A stretch of 64,000 nucleotides of DNA from an uncultured Ignavibacteria bacterium (GTDB lineage: Bacteria; Zixibacteria; MSB-5A5; CAIYYT01). This document shows, in pieces, positions 2,430 to 46,811 of this stretch (the first letter of the stretch is position 1; every line of letters begins with the position of its first letter). The notes below the pieces were generated by a model, which ran no database searches, was not told the DNA's origin, and saw only the letters and a program-made list of their open reading frames with translations. The stretch lies in the NCBI GenBank assembly GCA_964370935.1, contig CAYJKI010000010.1:70796-134795 (forward strand), given 5' to 3'. Both the position numbers and the translations under genes were made by a program.

Positions 2430-3797
2430 ATGCCCAAGCTCAATAACATTCTCGACGCTATCGGTAATACGCCGCTCGTCCAATTGAAGCGGATGGTGCC
2501 GGAGGGCGCCGGCGAGGTGTATGCCAAGCTCGAGTTCATGAACCCCGGTGGTTCGATTAAAGACCGGATGGCTAGGTATATAATCGAGGACGCCGAGCGC
2601 CGGGGCGAACTCAAGTCTGGCATGATCGTTGAAAACACGTCGGGCAATACCGGCGTCGGTGTGGCGATTGTCGCCGCGGTTAAGGGTTACAAAGCCATTT
2701 TCACGATACCTGATAAGATGTCCGATGAGAAAATCAACTTACTCAAGGCATTCGGCGCCAAAGTGGTGGTGACCAAGACCAATGTCCCGGCCGACAGTCC
2801 GGAATCGTATTACGAAACGGCTAAACGGATTCATCGCGAGAATCCCGGCTCGTTTTACCTCAACCAGTATCACAATCCTAAGAATATTGAGGCGCACTAC
2901 AATCTAACCGGTCCGGAAATCTGGAAAGACATGGATGGCAAGATTGACTATTTCGTCGCCGGTATAGGAACAGGCGGAACACTCTCTGGAGCAGGTAAGT
3001 ACCTCAAGGAGCAGGATAAGAACATTAAGATTATTGCTGTCGACCCCTACGGTTCGGTTTTCTACGACTTCTTCAAGACCGGCAAGCCGGGCAAGCCGGA
3101 GGTCTACAAAGTCGAAGGCATTGGCGAAGATATGATCACGCAGGCAATGGACTTCTCCGTTGTGGATGATATGCTTCAGGTGAATGACCGCGACTGTTTC
3201 CTCACTGGTCGCGATTTGACGACGAAGGAAGGGATTTTTGCCGGTGGATCTTCAGGAGCGGCCGTTTGGGGTGCAATACAGGTAGCCAAGAAGGTCGGAC
3301 CGGGGAAGCGCATCGTTGTCGTCCTGCCGGACAGTGGCACTCGTTATCTATCGAAAATGTTCAATGAGACATGGATGCGCGACTATGGATTCCTTGAAGA
3401 ACGCCCCGAGCTTGGATCAGTTCAGCGAATCCTGGAACGCAAGAACGGCAAAGAAATCATTTCTGCAAGTGCCGACGAGTCGCTACATAATGTGATCGAA
3501 AAGATGAAGAAATATGATATTTCGCAGCTGCCTGTTATTGAGAATGGTGAACTAACCGGTCTGATTCGTGAATCGGATCTCTTGAGTCTGATGGTTTCGG
3601 GCCGTTACTCGCCGTCACAGACCATTAGAGGTGCAGTTGTTCACGAATATCATACGGCTGCGCGCGAAATGCCGATTTCGAGGCTGGCCGAGCTGTTTTC
3701 TAAATCCAATGCCGATGTCGTTTTTGCGGTTGATAACCGCAAGCTGGTCGGTATCTTGACCAAAATTGATTTAATTGACTTTCTTGCAGGAGCTTGA
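2430..3797 (+). CDS. Cystathionine beta-synthase (PLP-dependent CysK/CBS fold plus a C-terminal tandem CBS/Bateman domain)
   Basis: PLP-lysine region GGSIKDRMA. GTGGT loop. About 130 aa C-terminal CBS pair. RBS AGGATAACAATG. 455 aa. Confidence 0.85.
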   Translation: MPKLNNILDAIGNTPLVQLKRMVPEGAGEVYAKLEFMNPGGSIKDRMARYIIEDAERRGELKSGMIVENTSGNTGVGVAIVAAVKGYKAIFTIPDKMSDEKINLLKAFGAKVVVTKTNVPADSPESYYETAKRIHRENPGSFYLNQYHNPKNIEAHYNLTGPEIWKDMDGKIDYFVAGIGTGGTLSGAGKYLKEQDKNIKIIAVDPYGSVFYDFFKTGKPGKPEVYKVEGIGEDMITQAMDFSVVDDMLQVNDRDCFLTGRDLTTKEGIFAGGSSGAAVWGAIQVAKKVGPGKRIVVVLPDSGTRYLSKMFNETWMRDYGFLEERPELGSVQRILERKNGKEIISASADESLHNVIEKMKKYDISQLPVIENGELTGLIRESDLLSLMVSGRYSPSQTIRGAVVHEYHTAAREMPISRLAELFSKSNADVVFAVDNRKLVGILTKIDLIDFLAGA

Positions 3798-4966
3798 TTT
3801 TGAAAGATTACGATCCGACCAAACATCAATTCGAAACCAATGCGATTCATGCCGGCCAACCGCCCGATCCGGCAACCGGAGCCATCGCCTTTCCGATTTA
3901 CCAGACTTCAACCTATGTACAGGAAGGAATCGGCGGACATAAGGGATTTGAATATTCGCGTACAGCCAACCCGACCCGTTGTGCGCTCGAAGAGTGTCTG
4001 GCATCCCTTGAAGGCGCCAAATACGGTCTTTGTTTTGCCTCCGGCATGGCCGCTACGTCAAATGTCATGACCTTATTGAAGGCTGGCGACCATGTTGTCT
4101 GTTCCGATGATCTTTATGGCGGAACACCGCGAGTCTTTAATCGTGTGTACGCTGATTATGGTATTGAGTTCACTTACGTTGATACTTCGTTTACCGATCG
4201 CATCGAAGCGGCCATTAAGCCGAACACCAAGATGGTCTTCATCGAAACGCCAACGAATCCAATGCTCAAGATCACAGAGATTCGCGCCGTTGCGACGCTT
4301 ACCAAGCGCAAAAATCTGATTCTGGTAGTAGACAACACCTTTGCTTCGCCGTTTCTGCAGCGTCCGCTCGATCTCGGCGCCGACATCGTAGTGCATTCCA
4401 CAACCAAATACATCAACGGCCATGCCGATTCGGTAGGCGGTGCGGTCCTGACTTCGAACGAAAAGTACCATGAAAGAATGAAATACTGTCAAAATGCCGC
4501 CGGCGGAATCATGGGACCTTTCGATGCATTCTTGACAATGCGCGGCGTAAAGACTTTGGCATTGCGCATGGAGCGCCAATGCGACAATGCGATGAATTTA
4601 GCGGTATATCTCGAAACTCATCCCAAGGTCGAAAAGGTCATCTATCCCGGTTTGGAATCATTTCCCCAGCACAAGATAGCCGAGAGGCAGATGCGACTTT
4701 TCGGCGGGATGATTTCGTTTGTGATCAAGGGTGGGCTCGAGTCAGCGAAGAAGATGCTTGCCAATACTCCGGTATTCGGATTAGCGGAGTCACTTGGCGG
4801 TGTTGAGTCGCTTATTCAACATCCTGCCCTGATGACGCACGCTTCGGTGCCCAAGGAAGTCCGTGACGCCAACGGCATCTCCGACGGCCTTATCCGGGTC
4901 TCGGCTGGTATTGAGGCTTATGAAGACCTCAAGCGCGCGCTTGACACTGGCTTCAGCCACGTCTAG
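3794..4966 (+). CDS. Cystathionine gamma-lyase/gamma-synthase family PLP enzyme (Cys/Met metabolism)
   Basis: AIHAGQ near the N-terminus. FASGMAA. The TTKYINGH region holds the PLP-Lys. 4-nt ATGA overlap with the upstream CBS, which suggests translational coupling. Confidence 0.85.
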   Translation: MILKDYDPTKHQFETNAIHAGQPPDPATGAIAFPIYQTSTYVQEGIGGHKGFEYSRTANPTRCALEECLASLEGAKYGLCFASGMAATSNVMTLLKAGDHVVCSDDLYGGTPRVFNRVYADYGIEFTYVDTSFTDRIEAAIKPNTKMVFIETPTNPMLKITEIRAVATLTKRKNLILVVDNTFASPFLQRPLDLGADIVVHSTTKYINGHADSVGGAVLTSNEKYHERMKYCQNAAGGIMGPFDAFLTMRGVKTLALRMERQCDNAMNLAVYLETHPKVEKVIYPGLESFPQHKIAERQMRLFGGMISFVIKGGLESAKKMLANTPVFGLAESLGGVESLIQHPALMTHASVPKEVRDANGISDGLIRVSAGIEAYEDLKRALDTGFSHV

Positions 4967-5028
4967 ATTTGTGGGGCAGGTTTGAATCCGGACCTGCCCC
5001 TAATTCTGATCAAGTAAAGGAAATTCCC

Positions 5029-5424
5029 ATGTACACGACCATTTACACATTCGGCGTCGAAACATCGATGACTTTCTTGGATGCTCGAGCGCGAGTTGAG
5101 GCACTGCTCAAGGAAGTTGGCTTCGGCATCTTGACTGAAATTGACGTCAAAGCTACAATGAAGAAGAAACTCGACGCTGACTTCAGACCCTATGTCATTC
5201 TTGGCGCCTGCAACCCGAAAATTGCTTATGAAGCGTTTCAGCGGGAGTTGGAGATCGGCTCGTTACTTCCATGCAACGTTATCGTCTACGAAAACGACAA
5301 GGGCGGAACTAATGTTTCGTTTATGGATCCGCTAGCGGCGCTGGGTTTAACCGGCAACAAGGAGTTAACGCAGCAGGCACAACAGGTTCGCGATCTGCTT
5401 CAGCAAGTCGCAGCCAAGTTGTAG
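5029..5424 (+). CDS. DUF302 family protein
   Basis: About 130 aa with a DUF302-like pattern (GFGILTEIDVKATMKKKL...PYVILGACNP). The internal ATG at 5029 is preceded by an AAAGGAAA RBS. The track ORF begins earlier at 4969. Confidence 0.65.
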   Translation: MYTTIYTFGVETSMTFLDARARVEALLKEVGFGILTEIDVKATMKKKLDADFRPYVILGACNPKIAYEAFQRELEIGSLLPCNVIVYENDKGGTNVSFMDPLAALGLTGNKELTQQAQQVRDLLQQVAAKL

Positions 5425-5476
5425 CGCCTGATTTTCTGTCGCGAAACTCGCCTCAACATCGCATCATGCCGATGAG

Positions 5477-6595
5477 ATGAAATCTGGTAGTGCACTAAAG
5501 ATCATTGAAGTCGGAGCTGTTCCGCCGCCTTTTGGCGGAGTTTCGGTACATACCAAGAGACTAATAGCGCGGTTGCTGTCTGATGGGTTGTTGTGCGAGA
5601 TCATCGATATCAGTGGCGTCGCCAAATCCGGCCACAATGTCCGTTCGCTAAGCTGGCGAAGGGCATTTCTTCATCTGCTTCGCTGCAAACCAAGTATCGT
5701 CCACTTCCACAATTTCGTTCCACGAAATCTTTACCTGTACTCCCTCTTGAGCACAAGGCACTTGACCGTGCTTTCTCTTCATAATGAGCGTTTTGACGAC
5801 GACCTGCAGCGGTATTCGCCAATTGAAAGGCCAATAATGGTGCGGCTGTTTGATTCCGTTGCGGCAATCATCATCCACAGCGAGACTTCCCACGATCGCG
5901 CACTGAAAGTTGGTATCGCGGAGCAGAAGTTGCACATAATTCCGCCATTCATCCCGCCTGCTAAAGCAGACTTAGTCGGACAGAGCCTTCCGGCGACGAT
6001 TCGGGTGCTACGAGAAAAGCATCGGTACCTGCTTGCCACCAATGCCTATCGACTTGCATTTCACCACGGGGAAGATCTTTACGGTATTGACTTGGTTATC
6101 GAGGCAACCGGCCGGTTGGTCAATGAGTATGGCTTGGATGTCGCAACAGTAATTCTACTTCCAGACGCCGGGGATTTGGAATACCTTGGCCGTCTTCGTG
6201 CCCGCGTAGAGGAACTCAACCTAATAGAGCGCTGCATCTTCTATTGTGAACCGGTGCCGGAAACAGCGGTGCTGTGGCAGAGGGCGGACATTGTCATTCG
6301 CGCTACCAACACGGACGCTGGTGATTCTTTGACGGTACTGGAAGCGCTTGCCGGCGGGACACCGGCAATTGCTAGCGACTGCGTGAAGCGAAACGCCGCG
6401 GCGCACCTCTTTGCCAATCGTGACTCGGATAGCCTCGCGCTTGTTTGCAGGTCGGTGCTTGACGAGTTAGATCTCAATCGCCAAAAACTTGTCGATTTGA
6501 AGCTTCCAGACAACGCGGGGCAGTTGATAGGGCTGTATCACAGACTTGCCGGCGCAAGTCAACTCGCCAAATCAGAGACCGGAGTTCTAAGGTGA
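5477..6595 (+). CDS. Glycosyltransferase family 4 (GT-B, group 1)
   Basis: C-terminal E-x7-E-like segment (GDSLTVLEALAGGTPAIASD) typical of GT4 retaining transferases. 372 aa. Confidence 0.75.
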   Translation: MKSGSALKIIEVGAVPPPFGGVSVHTKRLIARLLSDGLLCEIIDISGVAKSGHNVRSLSWRRAFLHLLRCKPSIVHFHNFVPRNLYLYSLLSTRHLTVLSLHNERFDDDLQRYSPIERPIMVRLFDSVAAIIIHSETSHDRALKVGIAEQKLHIIPPFIPPAKADLVGQSLPATIRVLREKHRYLLATNAYRLAFHHGEDLYGIDLVIEATGRLVNEYGLDVATVILLPDAGDLEYLGRLRARVEELNLIERCIFYCEPVPETAVLWQRADIVIRATNTDAGDSLTVLEALAGGTPAIASDCVKRNAAAHLFANRDSDSLALVCRSVLDELDLNRQKLVDLKLPDNAGQLIGLYHRLAGASQLAKSETGVLR

Positions 6596-9710: not shown

Positions 9711-10478
9711 CTACTTACCGGTACCTTCGGCCGGTGCTGCACCGGTGTCTGCGGGAGCAGGGGCTTTTGGCATCGGCTGGGCATTCTTGGGCATTACAAA
9801 CAGCGAATCCGCGATCGGCACATTGATCTCAATTGAGTCAATTGTGAGCATCTGCTGCGCGGATTGACCACCCATTTCTACCTGCGAATTGATTTTGAAC
9901 GGGAAAACGATACCATTAACTGCCTTGTGACTTGAGTAGCTGGTGTTCGAACGAGCACTCTTTTCGCGAACAATATAGAAGTTAGCGGCATCGAAGAAAT
10001 AGGTCGTGGTGTCATGTTCAGCGGACACATATTCGACCTTATAGGCTTTGGCTCCCTTGACCAGGTCCTCGCCGAGAAACTTAGCCGTTCCGCCCTTCTT
10101 TTTATAGTCTAACAGCGTAAACTGCTCCGCTTGGGTCTCAAGGTCGGCCTTCTCTTTGCCTTCAAGTATGAACGTCTGGCCCATCTGGGTTGCCCACGCT
10201 TCTTTGCCGTTGGTCCCGCCAGCGTACAGCACCATATTATTGGTCGAGACTTGCATGTAGCTCTTGTCGGGGAGGATCATAAACGCTGCCAGGTCAAGCG
10301 GCATTCCCTGGGCAAACATGCTGCCTTTCATGGTCATGGTCTTCACGTCGCTCATGGCTTTCGCTCCGCCATAGGCTTCGATGTGTTTGGCAATGATTTC
10401 GTCACCGGTCATCTCGGCCATAGCCGGAATCGCGGCTGCAATCATCAGGGCGAGGGTTAAGGCAAAAATCTTCTTCAT
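9711..10478 (-). CDS. Secreted LolA-like / outer-membrane lipoprotein-sorting family protein (putative)
   Basis: N-terminal signal peptide MKKIFALTLALMIAAAIPAMA. About 250 aa beta-rich protein. Family assignment is by overall resemblance only. Confidence 0.4.
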   Translation of the reverse strand: MKKIFALTLALMIAAAIPAMAEMTGDEIIAKHIEAYGGAKAMSDVKTMTMKGSMFAQGMPLDLAAFMILPDKSYMQVSTNNMVLYAGGTNGKEAWATQMGQTFILEGKEKADLETQAEQFTLLDYKKKGGTAKFLGEDLVKGAKAYKVEYVSAEHDTTTYFFDAANFYIVREKSARSNTSYSSHKAVNGIVFPFKINSQVEMGGQSAQQMLTIDSIEINVPIADSLFVMPKNAQPMPKAPAPADTGAAPAEGTGK

Positions 10479-11267: not shown

Positions 11268-11813
11268 ATGAAAAAAATAATGCTAATAGGACTTAGGACA
11301 CTTGCTGTCGCACTCATAGCGTTTTTTGCCATGGGGGCAAGCTGCATTACGACCGGCAATGTGATGGTTGTAGAGTATCTTGACGACTTGAGCGCGGCAA
11401 CCGGCCAGACGATCACTTCCGGTGATGTTAATCTCGAAGAAAATGACGACTGGCAGGAACATAAAGAAGATATCAACGGAATTGACGACCTGGGGTTTGC
11501 TTGTCGGATAACCAACAATTCCGACGCGTCAGCCTCGGGCCAGCTCTATGTCTCACCGAATGACAAGGATTACACGACCGAAGCGGCCATCCGTGCCAAC
11601 GGAATCCTGGTACTCGATGGAATCGTTGTGCCGGCGGGTCAGACGCGCGAGATTAAATGGCAGGAGTCATACGACTACCTGAAGAATTTCGAGCAGGTGA
11701 AAGAAGTCGTCTTCGGCGAGCAATTCCACTATTACTTCATCGCGGCAGAAACCCCGTTCGATATCGATGTCACTGATATAGTGCTGTTCATGTCGATCAA
11801 TGGTAAGCCGTAA
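11268..11813 (+). CDS. Hypothetical lipoprotein
   Basis: Signal peptide with a lipobox-like FFAMGASC. No recognisable domain. 7 nt downstream of the beta-barrel gene. Confidence 0.45.
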   Translation: MKKIMLIGLRTLAVALIAFFAMGASCITTGNVMVVEYLDDLSAATGQTITSGDVNLEENDDWQEHKEDINGIDDLGFACRITNNSDASASGQLYVSPNDKDYTTEAAIRANGILVLDGIVVPAGQTREIKWQESYDYLKNFEQVKEVVFGEQFHYYFIAAETPFDIDVTDIVLFMSINGKP

Positions 11814-12526: not shown

Positions 12527-12665
12527 AAGTTCTCACAGCCAATATGCCTGCTTTTGTCCCGGCGACCAACACAATTTCGTTGGTCTCCGGAAGGGCTAAG
12601 ATGTACCTTTCCCGTCGACATAGCGTTGCATCGCAATTGCGAGCGCTGCCACAAGGAGAGAAATC

Positions 12666-14540
12666 ATGGATCGGGCAATAATCAAAGAATTCTTATCACA
12701 TATCGAGCTGTTCAAAGATCTCGATGACGTTGAGCACGAACTACTTCTCGTCGAAATCACCGAATTGACGGTTGAAAGCGGTGCGCTGCTGTTCGAAGAG
12801 AATACGACCCGCGAACGGCTGTTTATCATTTTTGAAGGCGAAATTGAGTTGTTCAAGCGCACTCCCTATGATGAAGAGACCAGGCTCACGATATTCGCGA
12901 AGCACGATTTTCTCGGTGAAGGCGCACTGATGGAAGATTATCCGCATAATACTTCCGCCCGTGCCTTGGCCAAGTCAACGCTGTTGACCATAAGCCGCGA
13001 GCAGTTTTACCGGTTGTCCAATGAGCGGCCAACGATCGGATTCAAACTGATTTCCCGGATTGCCAGAGTGATTTCGCGCCGGATGAGACAGGCGAGTACC
13101 AGAGTGGTCAATGTGGCGGCTCAATACGTTTCCGGAAGAACACGAACCGAACACGACCTGCTGGGTGATCGCGAGGTACCTTCGGAATATCTCTATGGCA
13201 TTCAGACAATGCGCGCTTTGGAGAACTTCAATATAAGCGGAATCTCGCTGGCATATTATCCGGATTTCATCAAGGCGCTGGCAGTTGTCAAAATGGGCGC
13301 TGCGCGGGCAAATATGGAGCTGGGGCTGTTACCCCGCCCAGTTGGGGAAGCGATAATTCAAGCCTGCCTGGAGATCACAAACGGCCGTTGGCATACGCAG
13401 TTCGTCGTCGACATGATTCAGGGCGGCGCCGGGACGTCAACAAACATGAACGCCAACGAGGTCATAGCGAATCGTGCGCTGGAGATACTCGGTTATGAGC
13501 GCGGAGAGTACAAGTATTGCCACCCCAACAATCACGTCAACTTGTCGCAGTCGACGAATGATGCATATCCAACAGCCCTGAAGATCGCACTAATAAATTC
13601 CAACGGTAAGCTGATCGCGGTATTGAAGCAGTTGATTTCGTCGTTCTATGGCAAGGCGGAGGAATTCAGAGGTGTCATCAAGATGGGGCGGACGCAGCTT
13701 CAAGACGCTGTGCCGATGACGTTAGGTCAGGAGTTCGAAGCGTACGCTGTCATGCTTGAAGAAGAAATCGATCGACTTGAGCAGAACGTGTCGTTATTCC
13801 TCGAGGTCAACATGGGTGGTACGGCGATTGGAACTGGAATCAATGCCGATCCACGCTACTCGAAATTGGTGATCACCCACTTGCGTGAAATCACCGGTCT
13901 CGATATCAAACTGGCGAAGAATCTTGTTGAAGCGACGCAGGACACCGGAGCGTTTGTGATGTACTCTTCGGCAATTAAGCGTCTTGCCATCAAACTCTCG
14001 AAGATTGCGAATGACCTTCGTCTTCTGTCGTCCGGACCGCGTGCCGGCCTTAATGAAATAAATTTGCCGCCGATGCAGCCGGGTTCGACCATTATGCCGG
14101 GAAAGGTGAATCCGGTGATTCCCGAGGTAGTCAATCAGATTGCATTTCTGGTGATTGGCAATGATCTCACGGTAACGCTCGCGGCCGAGGCCGGGCAACT
14201 ACAGCTCAATGTCATGGAACCGATCATTGCGCACAGCATTTTCGAGTCGATTGAAGTTCTCAAGAACGGCATGTTCACGCTCAAACACCGCTGCATCGAT
14301 GGAATTACTGCAAACGTTGAGAATTGCCGCCAGATGGTACTCAATTCAATCGGGCTGGTAACGGCGCTCAATCCAGTGCTTGGTTACGAGGCTTCGACCG
14401 AACTGGCGAAAGAGGCGTTACGGACAAACCGCAGTGTTTATGATCTGGTGCTCGAGAAAGGGTTGCTTTCGACCGAGCAATTGGACCGATTACTGACCCC
14501 GGAAAACATGATACGACCGCCCAAAATAGATAATGCTTGA
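12666..14540 (+). CDS. aspA: Aspartate ammonia-lyase (AspA-type) with an N-terminal cyclic-nucleotide-binding (CAP effector) domain
   Basis: N-terminal about 150 aa cNMP-binding pattern (FGEGAL...RSA.A....LL.I). C-terminal about 465 aa with GGAGTSTNMNANEV, GSTIMPGKVNPVIPEVVNQ, GQLQLNVMEPII and INGITAN. These match AspA, not FumC. Confidence 0.85.
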   Translation: MDRAIIKEFLSHIELFKDLDDVEHELLLVEITELTVESGALLFEENTTRERLFIIFEGEIELFKRTPYDEETRLTIFAKHDFLGEGALMEDYPHNTSARALAKSTLLTISREQFYRLSNERPTIGFKLISRIARVISRRMRQASTRVVNVAAQYVSGRTRTEHDLLGDREVPSEYLYGIQTMRALENFNISGISLAYYPDFIKALAVVKMGAARANMELGLLPRPVGEAIIQACLEITNGRWHTQFVVDMIQGGAGTSTNMNANEVIANRALEILGYERGEYKYCHPNNHVNLSQSTNDAYPTALKIALINSNGKLIAVLKQLISSFYGKAEEFRGVIKMGRTQLQDAVPMTLGQEFEAYAVMLEEEIDRLEQNVSLFLEVNMGGTAIGTGINADPRYSKLVITHLREITGLDIKLAKNLVEATQDTGAFVMYSSAIKRLAIKLSKIANDLRLLSSGPRAGLNEINLPPMQPGSTIMPGKVNPVIPEVVNQIAFLVIGNDLTVTLAAEAGQLQLNVMEPIIAHSIFESIEVLKNGMFTLKHRCIDGITANVENCRQMVLNSIGLVTALNPVLGYEASTELAKEALRTNRSVYDLVLEKGLLSTEQLDRLLTPENMIRPPKIDNA

Positions 14541-14625: not shown

Positions 14626-16305
14626 ATGGGTAACAACCTGCGTTATGATGTAGCGGATCAGAGACTCAAATATACCGGGCCGATGGCTGAATTCGGGTTT
14701 GAAAAGGACCGGGTCATCGAGTTCAATCACCGCCATCGTGCGGTGCTGGCCAACTATGATTTGGAACTGGAGTCGTGTGCGATTCTCAATCTGTCCAATC
14801 GTGTTAATCCAAAATCGAACTTGGGAGCGCTGCGAAACAGGCAAGTTCGTCAATCCGTGATTGTATCGGCGGCTTTGTCAGCGATTTCGGTCGGCCTCCA
14901 TGGCAGGGGTAGCCTGAATGCCGTCCCCAAGCACCTGGTTACCAATGAACTCAAGAATAACCTCAAGCGCGCCAATGACCGCACGGCGGCTCAAGTTATG
15001 GCCGAAGTCCTGCAGACGACTACCGAGACACTTCCAGTCGGTGAAGAGATCATAATCGAGTCGGCAATCACCGAAGGTGTTCGCATCAAGCCGGGAATTG
15101 AAGTTGGCGGCAATCCGACGATCGCGGTGGGCGCCGTCTTCGGGAAGCCAGAGCACCGTGCCAAGTACGGCCTGAAACTGCCTCAAAACGTGTCGCTTTT
15201 GTCGTTGGGAAATGATGTCATCGATGGCACAACTAAGTCAATCGAAGGATCGCATTCGAGTTTTACGGCGATGGTGATAACCGAGTCCGGGGTGAAGCGC
15301 CACCTACCCGACACATACGTACAGCGCTGGATGGCGGGAGTTCACTTTGAGGAATTCAATCCGCGCGAGACCAAGTTGGTTGAGATTGCGGAGATCATGT
15401 CGGCGGCACATGGGTATTCGTCCGTTGACAAATTGAGCACCTTCTTTCTTGATCGACCGAGGCACTCATTTGCGATGGAGACGCTCAACAAGGCCGGAGT
15501 CGCAACTCCATTTGACAAAGACGGCGATTTGATGCCTGGTATCGTGCTCGGCTTGGAAGGCTTGAGTTTTCCCGACAGTCGTTCTTTGTCGACTATGATT
15601 GGCGAGATCGGCGGCTCCGCCGAGTGGGCGGTCGGAGTTCTTCCACTGGTCTGGCGCGGCGGACAGGCGATAGGTATGCTCACCAGCCAATCCTCACTGA
15701 CACGCAAGGATCTGGCGCCGGAGGAACTGTGGAAAGAGCGGTTCCACTTCACTGAAGAAGAATTCATGCTGATTCAGGATGCTCGTTTCCAGCGCAAGCC
15801 ATACTTCACGATCAGCGACATCCTCGACGACCCGATGGCGGGAGGAATCAGCGCATTTGGCGCCATCACCGATAACTTTTTCATTCCTTATCTTCAGGGC
15901 GTTCGTGCCAATCACGAGAACGGGCGGATCAGTGTCAATATTCTGGTCGTCAATTCGATTGGAATGGTTGATGTCTGGCAAATGGTGTTTCGTTGCCTGA
16001 ATAACCTTGAGCAGACGGGTGCGCTTATGAGATCCCCCAAATCAGAGCTCGAGAATCTGTCCGGCATTGAGCTGGAGCAAAAAATCGGCGGGATGCTGAA
16101 TGACCAGCGCACGCGCGAACGGTATTTGATCTTCTTCAATAACGAGTATTACCCGGCACTAATTCCGATCCACGACAAAATGGTGCTGCTGCAAAAATCA
16201 GTCCAGGGATTGATTGAGCGCGGCGCTCTCACCGAGCAGGATCGCGAGATTATTCACTGTACCCAGAAGGTGGCGCCGGAATTGTTTGTGAATTCTGAAC
16301 TGTAA
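14626..16305 (+). CDS. GlpX-like (class II fructose-1,6-bisphosphatase fold) protein with N- and C-terminal extensions
   Basis: VIDGTT and FLDRPRH motifs resemble GlpX DP(I/V)(D/E)GT and (A/L)(D/K)(R)PRH. 559 aa against about 330 for GlpX. The C-terminal about 190 aa are unrecognised. Confidence 0.5.
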   Translation: MGNNLRYDVADQRLKYTGPMAEFGFEKDRVIEFNHRHRAVLANYDLELESCAILNLSNRVNPKSNLGALRNRQVRQSVIVSAALSAISVGLHGRGSLNAVPKHLVTNELKNNLKRANDRTAAQVMAEVLQTTTETLPVGEEIIIESAITEGVRIKPGIEVGGNPTIAVGAVFGKPEHRAKYGLKLPQNVSLLSLGNDVIDGTTKSIEGSHSSFTAMVITESGVKRHLPDTYVQRWMAGVHFEEFNPRETKLVEIAEIMSAAHGYSSVDKLSTFFLDRPRHSFAMETLNKAGVATPFDKDGDLMPGIVLGLEGLSFPDSRSLSTMIGEIGGSAEWAVGVLPLVWRGGQAIGMLTSQSSLTRKDLAPEELWKERFHFTEEEFMLIQDARFQRKPYFTISDILDDPMAGGISAFGAITDNFFIPYLQGVRANHENGRISVNILVVNSIGMVDVWQMVFRCLNNLEQTGALMRSPKSELENLSGIELEQKIGGMLNDQRTRERYLIFFNNEYYPALIPIHDKMVLLQKSVQGLIERGALTEQDREIIHCTQKVAPELFVNSEL

Positions 16306-19920: not shown

Positions 19921-22584
19921 ATGCATTCGGTAGGGAATTGCATGCTACTCATCTTGCTGGGAGTCTTTCTCTTCGGCAATGTCGACCAAGGTAATGCGCA
20001 GACCAATCCAAATTCGATAAGAAAGACGATCAGGGCAATCAAAGCCAATCCACATGCACCAAAGATTGATGGAAGGCTTGATGACCCGATCTGGCAGCAG
20101 GCTGAATTTCATTCGGACTTCCTGCAGAGACTTCCTGATGAAGGGGCCGAGCCGCTCGAAAAGACCGAGGTTGCCATCGTCTATGACGAGAATACACTCT
20201 ATGTCGGGGCACGGCTATACTGCGATTCACCTGACAAATTGCGAATGCATCTTGAACGCCGCGACAATCAGGGACCAGCTGAGCAGTTTATCGTGTCGAT
20301 TGACTCCTATTATGATCGCCGCACGGGATTCGGGTTTGGCGTGAACACATCGGGAGTGAGATTTGACCGGTATTATCCCCAAGATTCTGAAGGGGGTGCG
20401 GATTATTCGTTCAGTCCGGTCTGGCATGCTCACACGAGTGTCGATGACAAGGGCTGGATTGCCGAAATTGCCATCCCGTTTTCGCAGTTGCGCTTTACCG
20501 CCAAACCGGAGCAGGTCTGGGGCATCAATTTCAATCGTTGGATACCCGAGCGCAACGAAGACACCTACTGGGTTTACACGCCGCGCGAAGAGGCCGGATT
20601 TGTATCACGCTTTGGCGACTTGACGGGTATCGCCGGCATAAAGCCCTCGCGTCGTATCGAGGCGCTTCCGTACTTTGCATCTGATGCGAGCTTTGTTGAT
20701 GGTGACTTCACCGGCAATCCTTTCGAAGACGGCAAGGAGCTGGATCCGCGCTTTGGCGGCGACTTGAAGATGGGACTTGGGCCGAATTTGACTTTGGATG
20801 CGACATTCAATCCCGACTTTGGTCAGGTTGAAGCCGATCCCGCCGTCATCAATCTTAGCGCTTTCGAGACAGTCTATAGCGAAAAGCGCCCATTTTTCAC
20901 GGAAGGCGGCCTTCTTCTCGAGGGTAACGGTCCGAGCTACTTCTATTCTCGCCGAGTTGGCGGTCCGCCGCGTGATAATGGCGTCGGCGAAATCGTTCAC
21001 CAGCCCTCGAATTCGACAATCTTGGGTGCATCCAAGATCACCGGGAAGTTGAAATCCGGCACATCGATCGGATTGCTAACAGCACTGACTCAACGCGAGT
21101 TTGCGCAGAATTATGATCGCGAGAACGACTCGACATACAAGACCCAGATTGAGCCAATGACGTTGTATTCAGTTGCTCGCGTCGAACAACAATTCGGCAA
21201 GGAACGCTCAACGGTCGGAATTTCGTTGACTGGAATTGGGAGAAATCTCAATGACGTTGGCCGGCTTAAAGACAGGCTGCGTAAGAGTGCCATTACAGGC
21301 GGCGCCGACTGGCGACTGAAATTCAAGCAGGGTATCTACGAGCTCTACGGACATAGTGGTTTCTCCCACATCCGTGGTTCGCAGTCGGCCATCGCTCGAG
21401 CTCAGCGATCGAGCGCCAGGTATTTCCAGCGGCCGGATGCCGATTACCTTGAGTATGATTCGACGCGCACAACGATGACCGGTTACTCGTCGCGGCTTGG
21501 ACTACGCAAATCCGGAGGGAAGCACTGGATCTGGGATATGTCATTCAATGCCGAGTCGCCGAATTTTGAGCTGAATGATGCCGGTATACTCGGGCAGGCA
21601 GACGATCTCGATGCTAATATGTATGTTGGTTATCGCGAGAATAAGCCTGGCAGGATCTTTCGCAACTATTATCTGGAAGCTTATGGCTTTGCCAATTGGA
21701 ATTATGGCGGGAACCGCCAGTTCAGCGAAGGCGGAATCTATTCCGAATTCACTTTACCCAACTACCTGAACTTCTATTGGGGTGTAAGGCGTCAATTTCC
21801 CGGACAGGACGATGCACGGACCCGTGGTGGACCTTCGATGCAGAACGAAGCCGGCTACTCTACGAATTTTGGATTTAATACGAATTACACCGGGACGACA
21901 CAGTTCAGTACGTCTTTCAACTATGGCGTAGATGAACTCGATGGTTGGCTCTGGACGGTCAGTACTTCCTTGTCGACGCGGGTTGGCAACCGCATGGAGT
22001 TCTCTCTCAATCCTCGTTACACTCGCGAGGACCAGCCGAGGCAATACGTGGCCTCGGTGGCGGGTCATGGCGGCGGAGAAGGTACCTACGGTGTGCGCTA
22101 CGTGTTTTCGAGAATTGCCCGCACAACGATTTCGACGACAGTGCGAATGAACTATTACTTCACTTCGAATTTCAGCCTGGAGGTCTACGCCGAACCTTAT
22201 GCCGCCAACGGCAAGTTTCACCAGCATGGCGAGCTTATCAAGGCGCGAGGCCATGATCTGCGGTATTACGAGCATTCTGACGGTACGTCCATCGAGCTTA
22301 TCACGGACGAGGAAAACGGAGACCAGTATTACGAAGTCACCGATGGTGTCGAGTCATTCACACTGCCATTCCTTGATTTTGGTGCGCGTTCGTTCAGAAG
22401 CAATGTCGTAATGCGCTGGGAGTTTCGTCCGGGAAGCACTCTATATCTCGTCTGGCAGAGAAATCTGGGGGAACACAGAGATATCGGGAAAACCGTAAGT
22501 CCGGGGTCGCTCTTTGATTCGTTCGGCGCACAGGGTGAGGACTTCATCGCATTCAAGATTGCGTATTGGATTCCCATCTCCTGA
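19921..22584 (+). CDS. Large secreted DUF5916 / carbohydrate-binding-family-9-like domain protein
   Basis: Signal peptide. N-terminal DGRLDDPIWQQAEF... CBM9-like module followed by a long beta-rich region. Paralog of 35994..38243. Confidence 0.6.
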   Translation: MHSVGNCMLLILLGVFLFGNVDQGNAQTNPNSIRKTIRAIKANPHAPKIDGRLDDPIWQQAEFHSDFLQRLPDEGAEPLEKTEVAIVYDENTLYVGARLYCDSPDKLRMHLERRDNQGPAEQFIVSIDSYYDRRTGFGFGVNTSGVRFDRYYPQDSEGGADYSFSPVWHAHTSVDDKGWIAEIAIPFSQLRFTAKPEQVWGINFNRWIPERNEDTYWVYTPREEAGFVSRFGDLTGIAGIKPSRRIEALPYFASDASFVDGDFTGNPFEDGKELDPRFGGDLKMGLGPNLTLDATFNPDFGQVEADPAVINLSAFETVYSEKRPFFTEGGLLLEGNGPSYFYSRRVGGPPRDNGVGEIVHQPSNSTILGASKITGKLKSGTSIGLLTALTQREFAQNYDRENDSTYKTQIEPMTLYSVARVEQQFGKERSTVGISLTGIGRNLNDVGRLKDRLRKSAITGGADWRLKFKQGIYELYGHSGFSHIRGSQSAIARAQRSSARYFQRPDADYLEYDSTRTTMTGYSSRLGLRKSGGKHWIWDMSFNAESPNFELNDAGILGQADDLDANMYVGYRENKPGRIFRNYYLEAYGFANWNYGGNRQFSEGGIYSEFTLPNYLNFYWGVRRQFPGQDDARTRGGPSMQNEAGYSTNFGFNTNYTGTTQFSTSFNYGVDELDGWLWTVSTSLSTRVGNRMEFSLNPRYTREDQPRQYVASVAGHGGGEGTYGVRYVFSRIARTTISTTVRMNYYFTSNFSLEVYAEPYAANGKFHQHGELIKARGHDLRYYEHSDGTSIELITDEENGDQYYEVTDGVESFTLPFLDFGARSFRSNVVMRWEFRPGSTLYLVWQRNLGEHRDIGKTVSPGSLFDSFGAQGEDFIAFKIAYWIPIS

Positions 22585-31556: not shown

Positions 31557-33884
31557 TTAAGGAATCGGAGTGCCAGCCTCGCGATCGAGCAGCTCGCCTT
31601 CAGTGATCCAGCCATTGGCAGTCCAGTATCGGACGGCATTTAGAATATTGGCAGAATAGGCAGAGTCGGGCGTATTGGGCAGCTCGCCCGCCTCGATCAG
31701 GTCCTTCCGTCGTTCGACATAGCCGTCGGTGAATGCTACGTTACGTGCACGGAATCCGCGATCGAGAGAGTAGATAACGTCACAGTTCGGAACTTGAGAT
31801 TCGGATGTATACACGTCGATAAATCCGCCATTGCGGTCACGCAGTCCAATGAGGCCCGGCTGATTGTAACGGGCTGAACAATCGCGTCCGCAAAGGTCGG
31901 TCGGTGGGAAGGCTGCATAGAAGAAGTTGGAAGCCCGTTTCAATACACTTAGATCGTAGTAATCGTCTTCGTATGGGGGTGAACAGCCGCTCTTGGTCGA
32001 AAGATTGAGCGCAAAGAAAGTAGCGCATCCAAGACGATTATTGAAGGCGGAGAAGATCATCTCTTCCGAGCCGTCGAGGTCAATATCTCTTGTCATTCTG
32101 AATTGGGCTCCGCCCGCCTGAATATACCAGAAAAGGGAATCGCCATTGGCATCCCAGAGGCGTATGTGACAGCGTGCCGGCAGAATTTGCGTCGCTATCG
32201 TCAGTATGTAGGTTGTGTCCTTCAGCCTGACTGGACAAATCGCGAAGCCATGGTAGGTTGTGCTGTCGGTATCGCCGGGGTATTCGTTGGGAAATGCCAA
32301 ATATCTGCGGAACAGGAAATTCCCTTCCTTGCCGAAGACGTAGAGCCAAGCATTTTCCTCGACATCATTCTCATTCAGGGCAATCGCAAGTACCTCGTTA
32401 TCCCCGTCGCGGTCCATATCAGTTGCCATCATCATTGTCTGAATCTGCGTTTCAGCGAAATTCCCATTAAATACATTGGGAAACTGATACTTCCACAGCC
32501 GTGTCGAATCTGCGTTGAACACTTCAATCGTTCCAGATTCGATGACCGGTCGTACGAATGCCGGATTGTCATCAAAGAAGATCCATGCATTTGGATAGAT
32601 AAGGCACAACATCAAGTAGGCCAACACCGCCAACATCGGAACCTGGACCTTGGTCATGCGGCTATATTTGGCAGCTTGCTTGCCGACCCATTGCCCGATA
32701 CACACGCGTTCGGAGCGAATGATGTTCAAATCGGTAACGACATCGGCAAGGGATCGAACTCCGACAAGGAGCAACTGACGACGTGGGTACTCAGCTTGGA
32801 GGCGAGAGATCTCCTGCCGAGCTGTTTCGAGATTACTCTCCGGGACAACCAGATAGCGAATGTGTGAAAAGAAGGTGCGCGAAACCTTGACTGCCAGAGT
32901 TGCGTCATTGACCGGCTGAAGTGTGCCTTTGTCGTCCAAAATGCCCGTAACTGCCACTTCAGCCGAATTGAATCGTTCCACCCGATGAGCTTCTGATTTG
33001 AGGAGTTGGGTGTATGCCACCAGCGCGAATGCCAGTCCCATAGATTCGCCAGTCAGACGGTGGTCAGTGCCCGATATCCGGAAATTGGCATTAAAGCGCT
33101 TCTTGGCTAAATGGCTCATCCCCTCGCGCTGCAAAAGTAGTCGGACAGACTCGAGTGAACGATAGGCGCCGCCAATCAATGGATCATCAGGAGCAACAAC
33201 GATATCTGCAAAGGTCACCTTATCGGTCGCCGAATGGTTGCCAGCGACCTCGACATCGCCTTGCAGAAGCTTAAGTCTCCCGCGTGGTTCTGATGGTGGA
33301 TTGCCAGAATCGACCAAGAGACAGTAAGCACATTCGTTTGAAACGACACGGCGCTCGGCTTGCCATTCAGAAAGCTGGTCTCGTAACGCCTTGGCCAGTG
33401 ATTCATGCCGAGTTGAAATCAGATCAGCCAAATGCTGCAATGCGACAAATTCAGTGAGTTCGTTAAATTCCGATTCAGAAAGGTCAGGCGCCTCGGTCGC
33501 CAAGGACTTCGCCAAGTATTGTAGACCAGTCTTTAGGTTGCCCACATAGAAATTCACGCGAGCGGCAGATTGAAAAACTCTGTTCAAGGCAGTCGCAATA
33601 TCGGGCATTGCCTGATTGGAATTTGCCAGCGATTCGAGAATACTGATCAAGCTTTCCAGTTCGACAGGAGTCAGGTCAGAAAGAGCAGTTTCGCGCAACA
33701 ACAGTAGCACTATTGAGTAGTACTCCTCGAAATATGACCTGTACGCCGGCTCGTCGACTTGTGCACTTAGGTGCTGCCAGAAGCTGCAGAGTTGCAGTAA
33801 TCCTCGGTCACCGGAGGCGGAATCGACCACGCTGGATTTGTGCTTTTCCCATTCCTTGGCAAATTGAAGCGGGGACAATGTCAT
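31557..33884 (-). CDS. Single-pass membrane protein: cytoplasmic helical domain plus Lon-like S16 peptidase domain (no AAA+), TM helix, extracytoplasmic FG-GAP/beta-propeller-like domain
   Basis: Using track numbering from 33992. Lon proteolytic-domain-like block ...HRLTGESMGLAFALV...(Ser317)...VAVTGILDDKGTLQPVNDATLAVKV (Lys369), compare Lon PSAGIT...MTGEITLRGRVLPIGGLKEK. No Walker A/B. TM at about residues 451-467 with positive-inside KQAAKYSRMTK. The C-terminal region has DxDxDG repeats (DMDRDGDNEVLA, DIDLDGSEEMIF). Start moved to the internal Met (33884) to remove a 104-nt overlap with the upstream gene. Confidence 0.6.
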   Translation of the reverse strand: MTLSPLQFAKEWEKHKSSVVDSASGDRGLLQLCSFWQHLSAQVDEPAYRSYFEEYYSIVLLLLRETALSDLTPVELESLISILESLANSNQAMPDIATALNRVFQSAARVNFYVGNLKTGLQYLAKSLATEAPDLSESEFNELTEFVALQHLADLISTRHESLAKALRDQLSEWQAERRVVSNECAYCLLVDSGNPPSEPRGRLKLLQGDVEVAGNHSATDKVTFADIVVAPDDPLIGGAYRSLESVRLLLQREGMSHLAKKRFNANFRISGTDHRLTGESMGLAFALVAYTQLLKSEAHRVERFNSAEVAVTGILDDKGTLQPVNDATLAVKVSRTFFSHIRYLVVPESNLETARQEISRLQAEYPRRQLLLVGVRSLADVVTDLNIIRSERVCIGQWVGKQAAKYSRMTKVQVPMLAVLAYLMLCLIYPNAWIFFDDNPAFVRPVIESGTIEVFNADSTRLWKYQFPNVFNGNFAETQIQTMMMATDMDRDGDNEVLAIALNENDVEENAWLYVFGKEGNFLFRRYLAFPNEYPGDTDSTTYHGFAICPVRLKDTTYILTIATQILPARCHIRLWDANGDSLFWYIQAGGAQFRMTRDIDLDGSEEMIFSAFNNRLGCATFFALNLSTKSGCSPPYEDDYYDLSVLKRASNFFYAAFPPTDLCGRDCSARYNQPGLIGLRDRNGGFIDVYTSESQVPNCDVIYSLDRGFRARNVAFTDGYVERRKDLIEAGELPNTPDSAYSANILNAVRYWTANGWITEGELLDREAGTPIP

Positions 33885-33888
33885 AAGG

Positions 33889-34749
33889 TTACTGGAATAT
33901 CCGGAGGTTGATGTTTGAAGTATGTTCCGGTAACATGAATAGTACTCGCTGACCGCTGCCGAGAGACTGCAACTCAAGGTGACGATCTTCAATCAGAAGT
34001 ATTTTGACCTTTTCGAAGTCATCATGGCCGTCCAACTGCAGAAGTTCAATCTCGAGCTGTTTACCTACAGTTTTTCCGAGCAAGGTGACCCTAATTCGAT
34101 CTCCCCGATCCGTCTCAAGTACCGTATCCCGCGAATACTCAATCTTGTCCGGGGCATAGACCAGGGGCTGAAGATCAAAACTTGCTTCGGGAAGTCGAAC
34201 TTGCCAATGCAGGTCTGCCGGGTTATCGGTAATAGATTCGGGCAGGGTTGCGCGACCGTCAGAATCTGTGGCAATTTCAGCTCCGATTTCCGGTGCACAG
34301 ACCAAGACATTGGCAGTCAAGTCTATCGACTCCGCAATCAACTGCAGATACCTCGAATCATCGCCTTGGTCACGCATCATCCTAAGGACGATTTCGGGAT
34401 TTTCAGAATAAAGTGTCGCGATGCTTAGACTTCCCGCACGATCAGGTGTTGGACTGTCGGCGGCAAGATACTTCTGTGGAGCTACCGTCACGACCGGCAG
34501 TAGAGTCAAATCGATGACTAGTCCGCGGCGATCATGCCGGGACAGGCGGTCAAGGAAACTCGTGATTTGACCCGACAACGGCGCTGCCATTAATTCTCCA
34601 ATAACCTCGCCGTGAGTGAGATAGTCCTCGAGATACTCTCGACAAAACTCGCAGACCTCGAGATGGGTGCGGATTTCCTTACCACCGTCGGCGGCTTTCA
34701 AGTTGTTGTCTGCCAAAGCCTCCAGCAGCTTACGAGCCGGATGGGTCAT
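33889..34749 (-). CDS. zf-HC2 (putative anti-sigma factor-type zinc finger) domain protein, apparently cytoplasmic
   Basis: N-terminal H-x3-C-x2-C motif (THLEVCEFCREYL) at the position typical of anti-sigma zf-HC2 domains. No convincing TM segment. 286 aa. Confidence 0.5.
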   Translation of the reverse strand: MTHPARKLLEALADNNLKAADGGKEIRTHLEVCEFCREYLEDYLTHGEVIGELMAAPLSGQITSFLDRLSRHDRRGLVIDLTLLPVVTVAPQKYLAADSPTPDRAGSLSIATLYSENPEIVLRMMRDQGDDSRYLQLIAESIDLTANVLVCAPEIGAEIATDSDGRATLPESITDNPADLHWQVRLPEASFDLQPLVYAPDKIEYSRDTVLETDRGDRIRVTLLGKTVGKQLEIELLQLDGHDDFEKVKILLIEDRHLELQSLGSGQRVLFMLPEHTSNINLRIFQ

Positions 34750-45920: not shown

Positions 45921-46811
45921 TCAGTTGCCGAATCCTTCCGAAGACTTGCGGATATTCTCGATCACCTCTCCATAGTACGGCTTCTCCTTGAGACTGGCAT
46001 AGGCGCCGGGGAAGAGGACAATCGTGATTTCCGCACCCATCTCGGAAAAGTTGTTCATGATGACAGAAAAGCGCTGACCATTGGGGAGACGCGTATTGTC
46101 AATCATCGGGAAGTCGTAAAAACCGGTGCTGAAAGATACATTTTTCGAAACAGGGTCGCCCTGTCCGTTTTGACTGCGAATCGTGACGTCGAGGCGCAAC
46201 TCTTTAGCCTCGCGATCGACATCGGTAACGTCAACAACCAGAGTTGTGGAAACGCTGTCGAGATCGAATTCTGCCGGCTCAAGTGCAACACCTTCGAATT
46301 CGCCTTCCAGATTCACCGCCCAGTCCTTTTTGACACCGACACCTTCGAGCACCACCATTTGCTTCTTGGTGATTTCCCTTGCGACCCTCTCGAGTCGGCG
46401 CTGGAACGCTTGATACCGCTCAATTGAATCGGGTCGTGCCTCGTGCTTCAGGCGCTCGGAAATGCTCTGTCTTAAATCGGTGAAGAGCGGCTTCAGATTG
46501 AGCGACTCATGGAAATTATAGGCTAGTAATTCCAGATTCAGAACTGCCGCTCCGATTGTTGATTCCTGCGGGCGCAGAAACGTTCCAATGATCGACACGA
46601 ACATGTCCTTGCGCAGAGCACTTTCGGACTGCTCGCGGTTGCTCATCAATTCTGAATAGAGCCGCGTATTGGCATCGAGCGATTGTTGGCGCTCAAGGTA
46701 CTGCGAGGTAAAGAAGCCAAGAAGCGTTATAGCAATGGCCGTGAACAGCCCGCCGAGGGGCTGTAAGATAATGGTGAGTTTATCCCAGAAATCGCGCTTC
46801 TTGTTCTCCAC
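45921..46811 (-). CDS. Hypothetical membrane-anchored protein
   Basis: Single N-terminal TM (LTIILQPLGGLFTAIAITLLGFF). No recognised domain. 4 nt downstream of the 46815 gene (operon). Confidence 0.4.
   Translation of the reverse strand: MENKKRDFWDKLTIILQPLGGLFTAIAITLLGFFTSQYLERQQSLDANTRLYSELMSNREQSESALRKDMFVSIIGTFLRPQESTIGAAVLNLELLAYNFHESLNLKPLFTDLRQSISERLKHEARPDSIERYQAFQRRLERVAREITKKQMVVLEGVGVKKDWAVNLEGEFEGVALEPAEFDLDSVSTTLVVDVTDVDREAKELRLDVTIRSQNGQGDPVSKNVSFSTGFYDFPMIDNTRLPNGQRFSVIMNNFSEMGAEITIVLFPGAYASLKEKPYYGEVIENIRKSSEGFGN

Follow-up and report, generated by a model that had tools for sequence, protein, structure and literature searches.

A CRP-type sensor domain fused to aspartate ammonia-lyase in Zixibacteria, Ignavibacteria and related lineages: a candidate ligand-gated aspartase

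Aspartate ammonia-lyase (AspA, aspartase) occupies a branch point between amino acid catabolism, nitrogen release and the provision of fumarate for the tricarboxylic acid cycle or for fumarate respiration. In Escherichia coli, transcription of aspA depends on cyclic AMP (cAMP) and CRP, and the enzyme itself is activated by its substrate and by Mg2+. Control of aspartase in model bacteria is mainly transcriptional, with the addition of a separate PII protein acting on the enzyme. The post-translational regulation of E. coli AspA by binding of the PII protein GlnB is attributed to Schubert et al. 2021 where that work is cited in PMC11617674 and PMC10936423. The subject of this study is a gene from an uncultured Ignavibacteria bacterium (GTDB lineage Zixibacteria) that lies in a 64,000-nt stretch of contig CAYJKI010000010.1 (assembly GCA_964370935.1), hereafter the window, and encodes a cyclic-nucleotide-binding (CNB) domain of the CRP type joined to the amino terminus of a complete AspA. 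While the control of E. coli AspA is exerted in trans, through transcription and GlnB, the fused domain would merge such control into one polypeptide. All coordinates are positions in the window and all residue numbers refer to the 624-aa fusion protein.

A sensor-domain-gated enzyme is a familiar design principle; what differs in the fusion is the output class and the variant of the phosphate-binding cassette (PBC). Mycobacterial Rv0998/MSMEG_5458 is a cAMP-regulated protein lysine acetyltransferase with a fused CNB domain, and enzymes of this type are reported as cAMP binders, as are those of the Bd1971 and CNB-diguanylate cyclase types. In each case an amino terminal CNB domain and a catalytic domain are held in cis with a helical linker as the transmitter, as they are in the fusion, and the CNB domains of the Bd1971 EAL phosphodiesterase (PDB: 6hq2-6hq7) and of the diguanylate cyclase (PDB: 5h5o) are detectable homologs of its sensor. 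Throughout the fusion family, the CNB and the catalytic domain are found on one chain and conserved as a unit. Whereas the described CNB-fused enzymes have signalling or modifying functions, the output of the fusion is a C-N lyase of central metabolism, predicted to work as a homotetramer with shared active sites. Its sensor is also unlike theirs in being of the CRP type, with a dimerization helix, and in missing the PBC arginine. The CNB-AspA fusion is apparently undescribed, since no description of it was found in the open-access literature, a result that is suggestive and not conclusive.

Three other groups of proteins offer a comparison with parts of the fusion. The CRP/FNR factors, represented by actinobacterial CRP/GlxR and by E. 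coli CAP, share with it the effector fold, the long C-helix, an 'ARRL…' motif and a hinge that continues to a Gly-Arg pair. They differ in that the fusion has a 465-aa enzyme in place of their helix-turn-helix (HTH) domain, a histidine in place of the PBC arginine, and a C-helix that is four residues, or one turn, longer than that of CAP and GlxR. In the trypanosomatid PKA-R proteins, the PBC arginine is replaced by Thr/Asn together with a glutamate that excludes phosphate. These regulators (PDB: 6hyi, 6hyq, 6h4g) resemble the fusion in having lost the arginine and are functional with inosine or guanosine; however, they are eukaryotic kinase regulators that act in trans, and the fusion has histidine as the replacement and keeps a small Ala/Ser at the position equivalent to the glutamate. 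The third group is made up of stand-alone aspartases of known structure from E. coli (PDB: 1jsw), Bacillus sp. YM55-1 (AspB, PDB: 1j3u/3r6v) and Elizabethkingia (PDB: 6wng). These are proteins of ~460-478 aa that begin near residue ~158 of the fusion without an amino terminal sensor, and they align with its residues ~160-624 essentially gaplessly.

The fusion gene is a complete coding sequence at positions 12666..14540 of the forward strand, one unbroken open reading frame (ORF) of 624 aa plus stop. A strong Shine-Dalgarno site, AAGGAG, can be read from the sequence on the same strand at positions 12653..12658, with a spacing of 7 nt to the ATG, and supports translation from the start of the sensor domain. 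No in-frame start codon with a ribosome-binding site is present at residues 100-175, that is, near the domain boundary. An earlier note on this DNA had proposed a CAP-effector, or cyclic nucleotide monophosphate (cNMP)-binding, domain fused ahead of AspA, and this is borne out by the Pfam and NCBIfam domains found within the single ORF. The three Pfam families concerned were all matched: cNMP_binding at aa 35-119 (57.6 bits against a gathering cutoff of 27.5, E = 1.2e-15, profile positions 3-87/89), Lyase_1 at aa 168-498 (321 bits) and FumaraseC_C at aa 564-616 (82 bits). Among the motifs quoted in that note, VNPVIPEVVNQ and GQLQLNVMEPII are literally present, while INGITAN reads IDGITAN, FGEGAL reads F-L-GEGAL and RSARA reads T-S-A-R-A.

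The AspA catalytic unit spans aa 161-624 (positions 13146..14537, forward strand), as delimited by NCBIfam, phmmer and Foldseek. Its identification as AspA rather than FumC, already made in the earlier note, agrees with the NCBIfam equivalog scores. The aspA model TIGR00839 was matched with 720.1 bits, above its cutoff of 681.2, and NF008909 with 750.4 bits against a cutoff of 510, whereas the fumC model TIGR00979 reached 474.7 bits and fell under its cutoff of 664.75. By these scores, the lyase half belongs to AspA, not to FumC. With phmmer, the best agreement was with Elizabethkingia AspA (6wng, E = 5e-194, gapless), followed by E. coli AspA (1jsw, 2.5e-167, one single-residue gap) and Bacillus AspB (1.1e-159). 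The identities reported by Foldseek were 65 %, 55 % and 53 % for the Elizabethkingia, E. coli and Bacillus aspartases, respectively, compared to 39-43 % for class II fumarases. Since the identity to two characterised enzymes exceeds 50 %, the lyase half should be a competent aspartase that converts aspartate to fumarate and ammonia.

The signature regions of the lyase, GAGTSTNMNANEV, SQSTNDAYPT, GRTQLQDAVP and the SS loop, can be aligned with the solved aspartases column by column. They are invariant across the fusion family, save that the second serine of the SS loop is a threonine in the query copy only. The SS-loop signature of the query (aa 473-483, positions 14082..14114, forward strand) reads G-S474-T-I-M-P-G-K480-V-N482-P and was aligned to GSSIMP[GA]KVNP of the solved aspartases. 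Within it G473, S474, K480, N482 and P483 are invariant, and S474/K480/N482 were found in 81/81 sequences. The loop contains the catalytic serine, which we take to be the catalytic base by its correspondence to S318 of Bacillus AspB. At the other end of the enzyme, query R160-T-E-H-D-L-L-G aligned with residues ~6-13 of E. coli AspA; therefore, the sensor is joined to the very amino terminus of the lyase.

The sensor begins with a CNB, or CAP-effector, β-roll at aa 1-121 (positions 12666..13028, forward strand) that was identified by Pfam, AlphaFold2 and Foldseek. When residues 1-160 were modeled alone, AlphaFold2 returned a structure with a predicted local distance difference test (pLDDT) score of 85.8 and a predicted template modeling (pTM) score of 0.79. 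A Foldseek search with this model placed 2pqq, GlxR, MtbCRP with and without cAMP, and Thermus CAP at the top, followed by PKG and PKA. Many CNB structures were matched with a probability of 1.00 and a TMq of 0.65-0.80; in the case of the cAMP complexes of GlxR and MtbCRP, the TMq was 0.77-0.80 with a root-mean-square deviation of ~2 Å over ~146 columns that include the long C-helix. The model and its matches contain the elements of the CNB fold, namely the eight-stranded β-roll, the PBC helix and the carboxy terminal helix. By sequence, the PDB neighbours of the sensor were PKA-R (1e-17), 2pqq, PfPKG, GlxR, MtbCRP, DNR, Bd1971 and CAP, and they also include the CNB insert of a family 2B encapsulin.

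The β-roll is followed by a C-helix, hinge and junction at aa 122-160 (positions 13029..13145, forward strand) that end in KLISRIARVISRRMRQASTRVVNVAAQYVSGRTR and were delimited by alignment to CRP/GlxR and CAP. In the HMMER/phmmer alignment, query residues 6-159 extend over GlxR 4-153 and continue through the C-helix and hinge in the query segment SRRMRQASTRVVNVAAQYVSGRT. Mapped onto CAP, R138/R139 correspond to R122/R123, A143/S144 to T127/S128 and G157/R158 to G141/R142; the end-points of this alignment are consistent with those of the GlxR alignment. In CAP, the hinge gives way to the DNA-binding domain at G141-R142, and the aspartase begins where the DNA-binding domain of a CRP would. Since the alignments with both GlxR and CAP end at this Gly-Arg pair, the fusion looks like a CRP-family regulator whose HTH was exchanged, exactly at the hinge, for an aspartase. 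No HTH family was detected in the fusion protein, and residues 160-624 are fully covered by Lyase_1 and FumaraseC_C. Without an HTH_Crp_2 domain, the protein is not a CRP/FNR regulator and has the input module only. The stretch from aa 127 to 167 is nearly invariant in the family on all faces of the helix.

The distribution of the fusion was followed at the level of both proteins and genomes. A protein search returned 8000 relatives, of which the best 120 were used to judge architecture, and a scan across GTDB, with each species represented by a single genome, yielded 520 confirmed loci, of which the best 80 supplied the details. The question raised in the earlier note of whether homologs share the fusion was answered massively in the affirmative. 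PF00027, PF00206 and PF10415 occur together in 120/120 of the best protein clusters (616-656 aa, 71-100 % identity), and each of the best 80 of the 520 loci matches the query from residue ~1 to ~620. All 80 carry the gene as a single ORF; the median length is 622 aa, and some shorter calls reflect contig ends or the choice of start. A protein that is 100 % identical to the fusion is present on 26 contigs. The records of the best 80 loci name Zixibacteria, Ignavibacteria, Melioribacteraceae, Calditrichota/Caldithrix, Electryonea and GN15. The gene is also present in metagenome-assembled genomes (MAGs) classified as two cultured species, Ignavibacterium album and Melioribacter roseus, which makes the fusion directly testable. 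Complete genomes that contain the fusion include CP070756, CP070766, CP070796 and OY760907. Named homologs, such as MCX7876124.1 and UniProt A0A0W8FZB7, are annotated only as 'aspartate ammonia-lyase'. Together with the absence of a sensor from the solved aspartases, this agrees with the remark in the note that the arrangement is not the textbook one for AspA. Median identity to the query is 52 % in the sensor, 80 % at aa 136-165 and 78 % in the lyase.

An artefact, in which two adjacent genes were merged by a frameshift in sequencing or assembly or in which the contig is chimeric, has a negligible chance of accounting for these observations. The same continuous ORF recurs in 80 species-level genomes that are independent of one another and were drawn from many studies, the identical protein is carried by 26 contigs, and the junction has neither stop nor start; its peptide is the best-conserved stretch of the amino terminal region. 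Errors or pseudogenes of this kind do exist elsewhere, as a frame-broken copy demonstrates, and no sign of them was seen in the window. The two weaknesses that the earlier note had itself named, a sensor below the cNMP_binding threshold and a missed frameshift between separate genes, are both absent, with 57.6 against 27.5 bits in the first case and one ORF in 80/80 loci in the second. The two-gene explanation was rejected on the single ORF, the 120 proteins, the 80 loci and the lack of an internal start. The fusion is real and conserved.

The frame-broken copy, at positions 3995-5863 of locus L081 (ENA ERZ25039513 contig_67070, 75 % GC), is a collinear, distant CNB-AspA whose sensor is 34 % identical. 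At least five frame changes interrupt the gene, as a result of either long-read assembly errors or pseudogenisation, and since it is broken no intact fusion can be claimed beyond the FCB-type lineages. A conventional CRP-type regulator (cNMP_binding plus HTH_Crp_2) lies ~1 kb downstream of it on the opposite strand. Four fusion loci do carry labels from outside the FCB-type lineages, namely L023 and L047 (Phycisphaerales), L028 (Syntrophomonadaceae) and L034 (Acidobacteriota). Their fusions share ~72-73 % identity with the query, as the Ignavibacteria copies do, and mis-binning, mislabelling or a recent transfer are possible origins.

More divergent fragments, with 35-60 % identity in the sensor, retain the junction motif QY.[ST]G.[TIV]R.E.D and run on into AspA. 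An exhaustive HMMER search of representatives with the sensor alone returned mostly truncated or chimeric calls of divergent fusions, in addition to proteins with tandem CNB domains. None of these representatives was identified as an intact CRP regulator that has the PH[ST]TSAR motif outside a fusion and could thus count as a 'donor'. A search seeded with the high-GC fragment P0248, whose locus is the collinear, frame-broken one, gave four proteins only. The tandem-CNB proteins (P0124, P0136, P0146, P0149, P0164, P0193, P0237 and P0267) have four to five domains in 600-1000 aa, and many of their repeats have Tyr/His in place of the PBC arginine; in P0124 the motif 'PHVY[TA]ASAW' is found in 5/5 repeats. 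They form a non-canonical CNB population that is related to the aspartase sensor.

The ligand pocket of the sensor is where the fusion departs from a canonical cNMP receptor. The literature sees the key determinant of cNMP binding in the PBC, with an arginine that is highly conserved (PMC12422582). From the alignments, the PBC equivalent of the fusion lies at aa 84-99 (positions 12915..12962, forward strand) and reads G-E-G-A-L-M-E-D-Y-P-H94-N-T-S-A-R, with the codon of His94 at 12945-12947. An arginine corresponding to R82 of CAP or R209 of PKA RIα was not found in it. In gapless HMMER alignments, the PBC arginine of PKA-R, 2pqq, PfPKG and GlxR falls on H94, and this histidine is invariant: it is found in 121/121 relatives from the database, throughout the family alignment (A1) and in 80/80 genomes. 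The equivalent residue in the divergent fragments is histidine, occasionally Tyr/Gln, and arginine in one only (P0131). Of the CNB domains aligned from the same sensor search, 241/369 have arginine at this position. The PBC loop of CAP is one residue longer and the placement of its gap is ambiguous, with R82 opposite either N95 or H94 and no arginine in the query either way; for this reason, reliance was placed on the gapless alignments to PBCs of equal length.

Other features of the pocket are closer to the canonical arrangement. The Gly-Glu pair that contacts the ribose 2'-OH is present as the invariant G84-E85, aligned with the G-E of PKA-R, GlxR and CAP. The residue after His94 is Ser/Asn across the family, as is S83 in CAP, and A87 is small. 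On the C-helix, the positions corresponding to T127/S128 of CAP, which contact adenine N6, and to the T-N of GlxR are A/T143 and S/N144. Within the PBC, the invariant residues are G84, E85, G86, P93 and H94, with T96/A98/R99 at or close to invariance; elsewhere in the sensor, F43, E45, R49, G58, E61, L62, K64, R73, F77, D81 and F82 are invariant. Some of the invariants are specific to this family and atypical of CNB domains, namely E45, N46 and R49 in the β2-β3 loop and R73 on β5. Position 50 is mostly Lys/Arg and was aligned, against 5kbf, with the PKA aspartate (D170) that we take to pair with the PBC arginine. Judging from these alignments, the pocket is clearly under selection and yet non-canonical. 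The 'RSARA' that the earlier note had put forward as evidence for cNMP binding was a misreading, as the sequence is TSARA and the arginine of the canonical R[ST]A is replaced by His94. Of the ligands suggested there, cAMP/cGMP is thereby put in question by an invariant histidine at the place of the PBC arginine. The wider suggestion of 'a related ligand' is still viable, given that the Gly-Glu pair at the ribose and the C-helix positions that contact the base are CRP-like.

The fusion is best read as a ligand-gated aspartase in one polypeptide, a reading to which a probability of roughly 0.7 is assigned. The input of a CRP/FNR factor (CNB β-roll, long C-helix and hinge) is kept, and a complete AspA stands in place of its HTH output. 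A small anionic ligand would bind the PBC pocket and, as happens in CRP and PKA, reposition the C-helix and hinge. The hinge runs directly into the amino terminal β-hairpin of the lyase, and its movement would therefore change the activity of the enzyme; the simplest way would be to lift or impose a restraint that acts on lyase domain 1 or on closure of the SS loop in the tetramer. As in CRP, pairing of the sensors would probably involve their C-helices (aa 122-146), so that an AspA tetramer would have two sensor dimers, and the hinge (aa 147-160) would pack against lyase domain 1 or the SS loop of an adjacent subunit. The ligand might be expected to be nucleotide-like and bound in a non-canonical, possibly pH-dependent manner, since the positions for ribose, phosphate neighbours and base are CRP-like but are combined with an invariant histidine and with basic residues at R49 and position 50. 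In this way aspartate catabolism, with its supply of fumarate and NH3, could be coupled at the protein level to a signal of carbon or energy status. In the family alignments, selective constraint is strongest in the sensor pocket and in the C-helix and hinge, and such purifying selection on the pocket and the sensor-lyase junction is supporting evidence for allosteric control. Direct allosteric control of the aspartase, which the earlier note had taken to be implied by the fusion, is thus plausible on the evidence of conserved residues.

Several points weigh against a ligand-gated enzyme. The allostery is one that we infer from architecture and conservation. In the AlphaFold2 model of the full-length protein, the linker at aa 140-154 has a pLDDT <50 and the pTM is 0.66; since the linker is modeled without confidence, the sensor is not placed on the lyase and no interface between the two can be claimed. 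With the canonical phosphate-clamping arginine absent, the sensor might bind nothing or something unrelated. The gene neighbourhood gives no hint of the signal, as no conserved operon partner was found and the most frequent neighbour family occurs in 18/80 loci. Finally, no nucleotide cyclase or phosphodiesterase was detected among the ~38 ORFs scanned in the window, which says little about the whole genome.

If the sensor does bind a ligand, the first candidate is cAMP or cGMP, bound as in CRP and PKA and either activating or inhibiting the aspartase in the canonical manner. The closest relatives in sequence and structure are genuine binders (PKA-R at 1e-17, GlxR, MtbCRP and PKG), and the PBC framework G-E-x-A-L…P-x-[SN]-T-S-A-R has the length and register of PKA with E85 invariant. 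The match of A/T143 and S/N144 to T127/S128 of CAP and the T-N of GlxR points the same way, as does the small A87, which is retained here, unlike in Trypanosoma PKA-R where a glutamate at that position blocks phosphate. The dependence of E. coli aspA transcription on cAMP-CRP would add a physiological logic. However, the phosphate-contacting arginine is histidine in every full-length member (121/121; 80/80), the ORFs scanned in the window include no cyclase, and canonical binding is a tentative reading, at less than even odds. A protonated histidine could still pair with the cyclic phosphate; cAMP/cGMP bound non-canonically through His94 is likewise a tentative proposal that falls short of an even chance. 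A ligand other than a cyclic nucleotide, for instance a nucleoside, a 5'-nucleotide or an anionic metabolite such as 2-oxoglutarate, aspartate or fumarate, is possible though doubtful. CRP/FNR effector domains bind diverse ligands, and NtcA, of the CRP family, binds 2-oxoglutarate. The invariant exchange of Arg for His, the family-specific E45, N46, R49 and R73, and the Lys/Arg at position 50 would all fit such a ligand, and the arginine-less Trypanosoma PKA-R is a precedent among the structural neighbours. According to the titles of PDB entries 6hyi, 6hyq and 6h4g, this 'cAMP-independent' PKA-R was solved with inosine or guanosine, and a mutant containing T318R was used for a cAMP complex. 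On the other hand, the remaining cNMP-contact positions are all kept, which a dicarboxylate would not need, and the nearest relatives are cNMP binders and not sensors of the NtcA, CooA or CprK type. Were the ligand of this kind, the aspartase would be gated by a metabolic signal and not by a second messenger. On the unlikely side is the more specific proposal that the His-type CNB pocket is no cAMP/cGMP receptor and is tuned to a nucleoside or 5'-nucleotide, to another nucleotide messenger or to a pH-gated anion. Such a pocket would extend CRP-type modules to a new class of ligand and would amount to a phylum-wide switch on aspartate catabolism at the protein level in Ignavibacteria, Zixibacteria and Calditrichota.

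Two further explanations do without a nucleotide-like ligand. Many CNB-homology domains are ligand-free, and the domain could be a constitutive module for structure, oligomerization, autoinhibition or protein docking. The loss of the key arginine is compatible with this, as is a sensor that has diverged more (52 %) than the lyase (78 %). The conservation, however, lies on the pocket (G84-E85-G86, P93-H94 and T96/A98/R99) while the surface is variable and the hinge is almost frozen. Such a pattern is the one to be expected of a maintained binding site, and a ligand-free domain is improbable. It is more improbable still that His94 is a metal or haem ligand in a redox or gas sensor resembling CooA or DNR that would tie the aspartase to anaerobiosis. 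The P-H dipeptide is invariant in the pocket, DNR sensor domains are among the neighbours, and aspartate feeds fumarate respiration in anaerobes, as indicated by the reference list of PMC10936423. Yet a second conserved His/Cys ligand was not found among the sensor invariants, the closest relatives are nucleotide binders, and the Gly/Glu framework of a ribose-phosphate PBC is retained.

Returning to a ligand-gated aspartase, its interest lies in part in the hosts. Environmentally abundant and mostly uncultured lineages of peptide degraders apparently carry a CRP-type sensor that is hard-wired onto their aspartase. If the gating is true, the fusion would be, as far as was found, the first CNB/CRP module to control a lyase of central metabolism directly. 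The CRP input module of β-roll, C-helix and hinge would then be portable to a tetrameric output that does not bind DNA, and the family would offer a natural His-for-Arg variant of the PBC with which to probe the ligand specificity of CNB domains. It would also offer a compact, ligand-switchable scaffold for aspartases, which are industrial biocatalysts.

The genes that surround the fusion in the window are shared with its 3-8 closest relatives only, among them a GlpX-like gene downstream and MarC upstream, whose synteny is limited to the 5-8 closest. The former (14626-16305, forward strand, 559 aa) lies directly downstream of the fusion and is syntenic in the eight closest relatives only. Its match to FBPase_glpX is weak and partial (40.5 bits, residues 197-376 against profile positions 83-234/307), and its product resembles a divergent GlpX-like phosphatase of unusual size, in which extensive amino and carboxy terminal regions are unassigned. 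Several other ORFs had no Pfam match at 1e-5, namely those at 31560-33884 (775 aa), 33892-34749 (286 aa), 45924-46646 (241 aa) and 48891-50027 (379 aa), all on the reverse strand. At a threshold of 1e-3, no Pfam match was obtained for 9711-10478 (reverse strand, 255 aa) and 11268-11813 (forward strand, 181 aa). Two DUF5916 proteins are encoded at 19921-22581 (forward strand, 887 aa) and at 35997-38243 (reverse strand, 749 aa), the second of which also has a CBM9-like carbohydrate-binding domain.

On the forward strand near the start of the window, a PALP plus CBS-domain enzyme of the cystathionine β-synthase type (2430-3794) is followed by a Cys_Met_Meta_PP enzyme (~4046-4963), and the two genes are likely a transsulfuration pair. 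The ORF call of the latter opens at profile position 77, and the gene probably starts upstream of this call. Another fusion protein, 713 aa in length, is encoded at 54723-56861 of the forward strand, where Aminotran_5 (236 bits) is joined to AIRS and AIRS_C. The Aminotran_5 part is of the NifS/cysteine desulfurase or selenocysteine lyase type, and the AIRS part resembles SelD, the selenophosphate synthetase.

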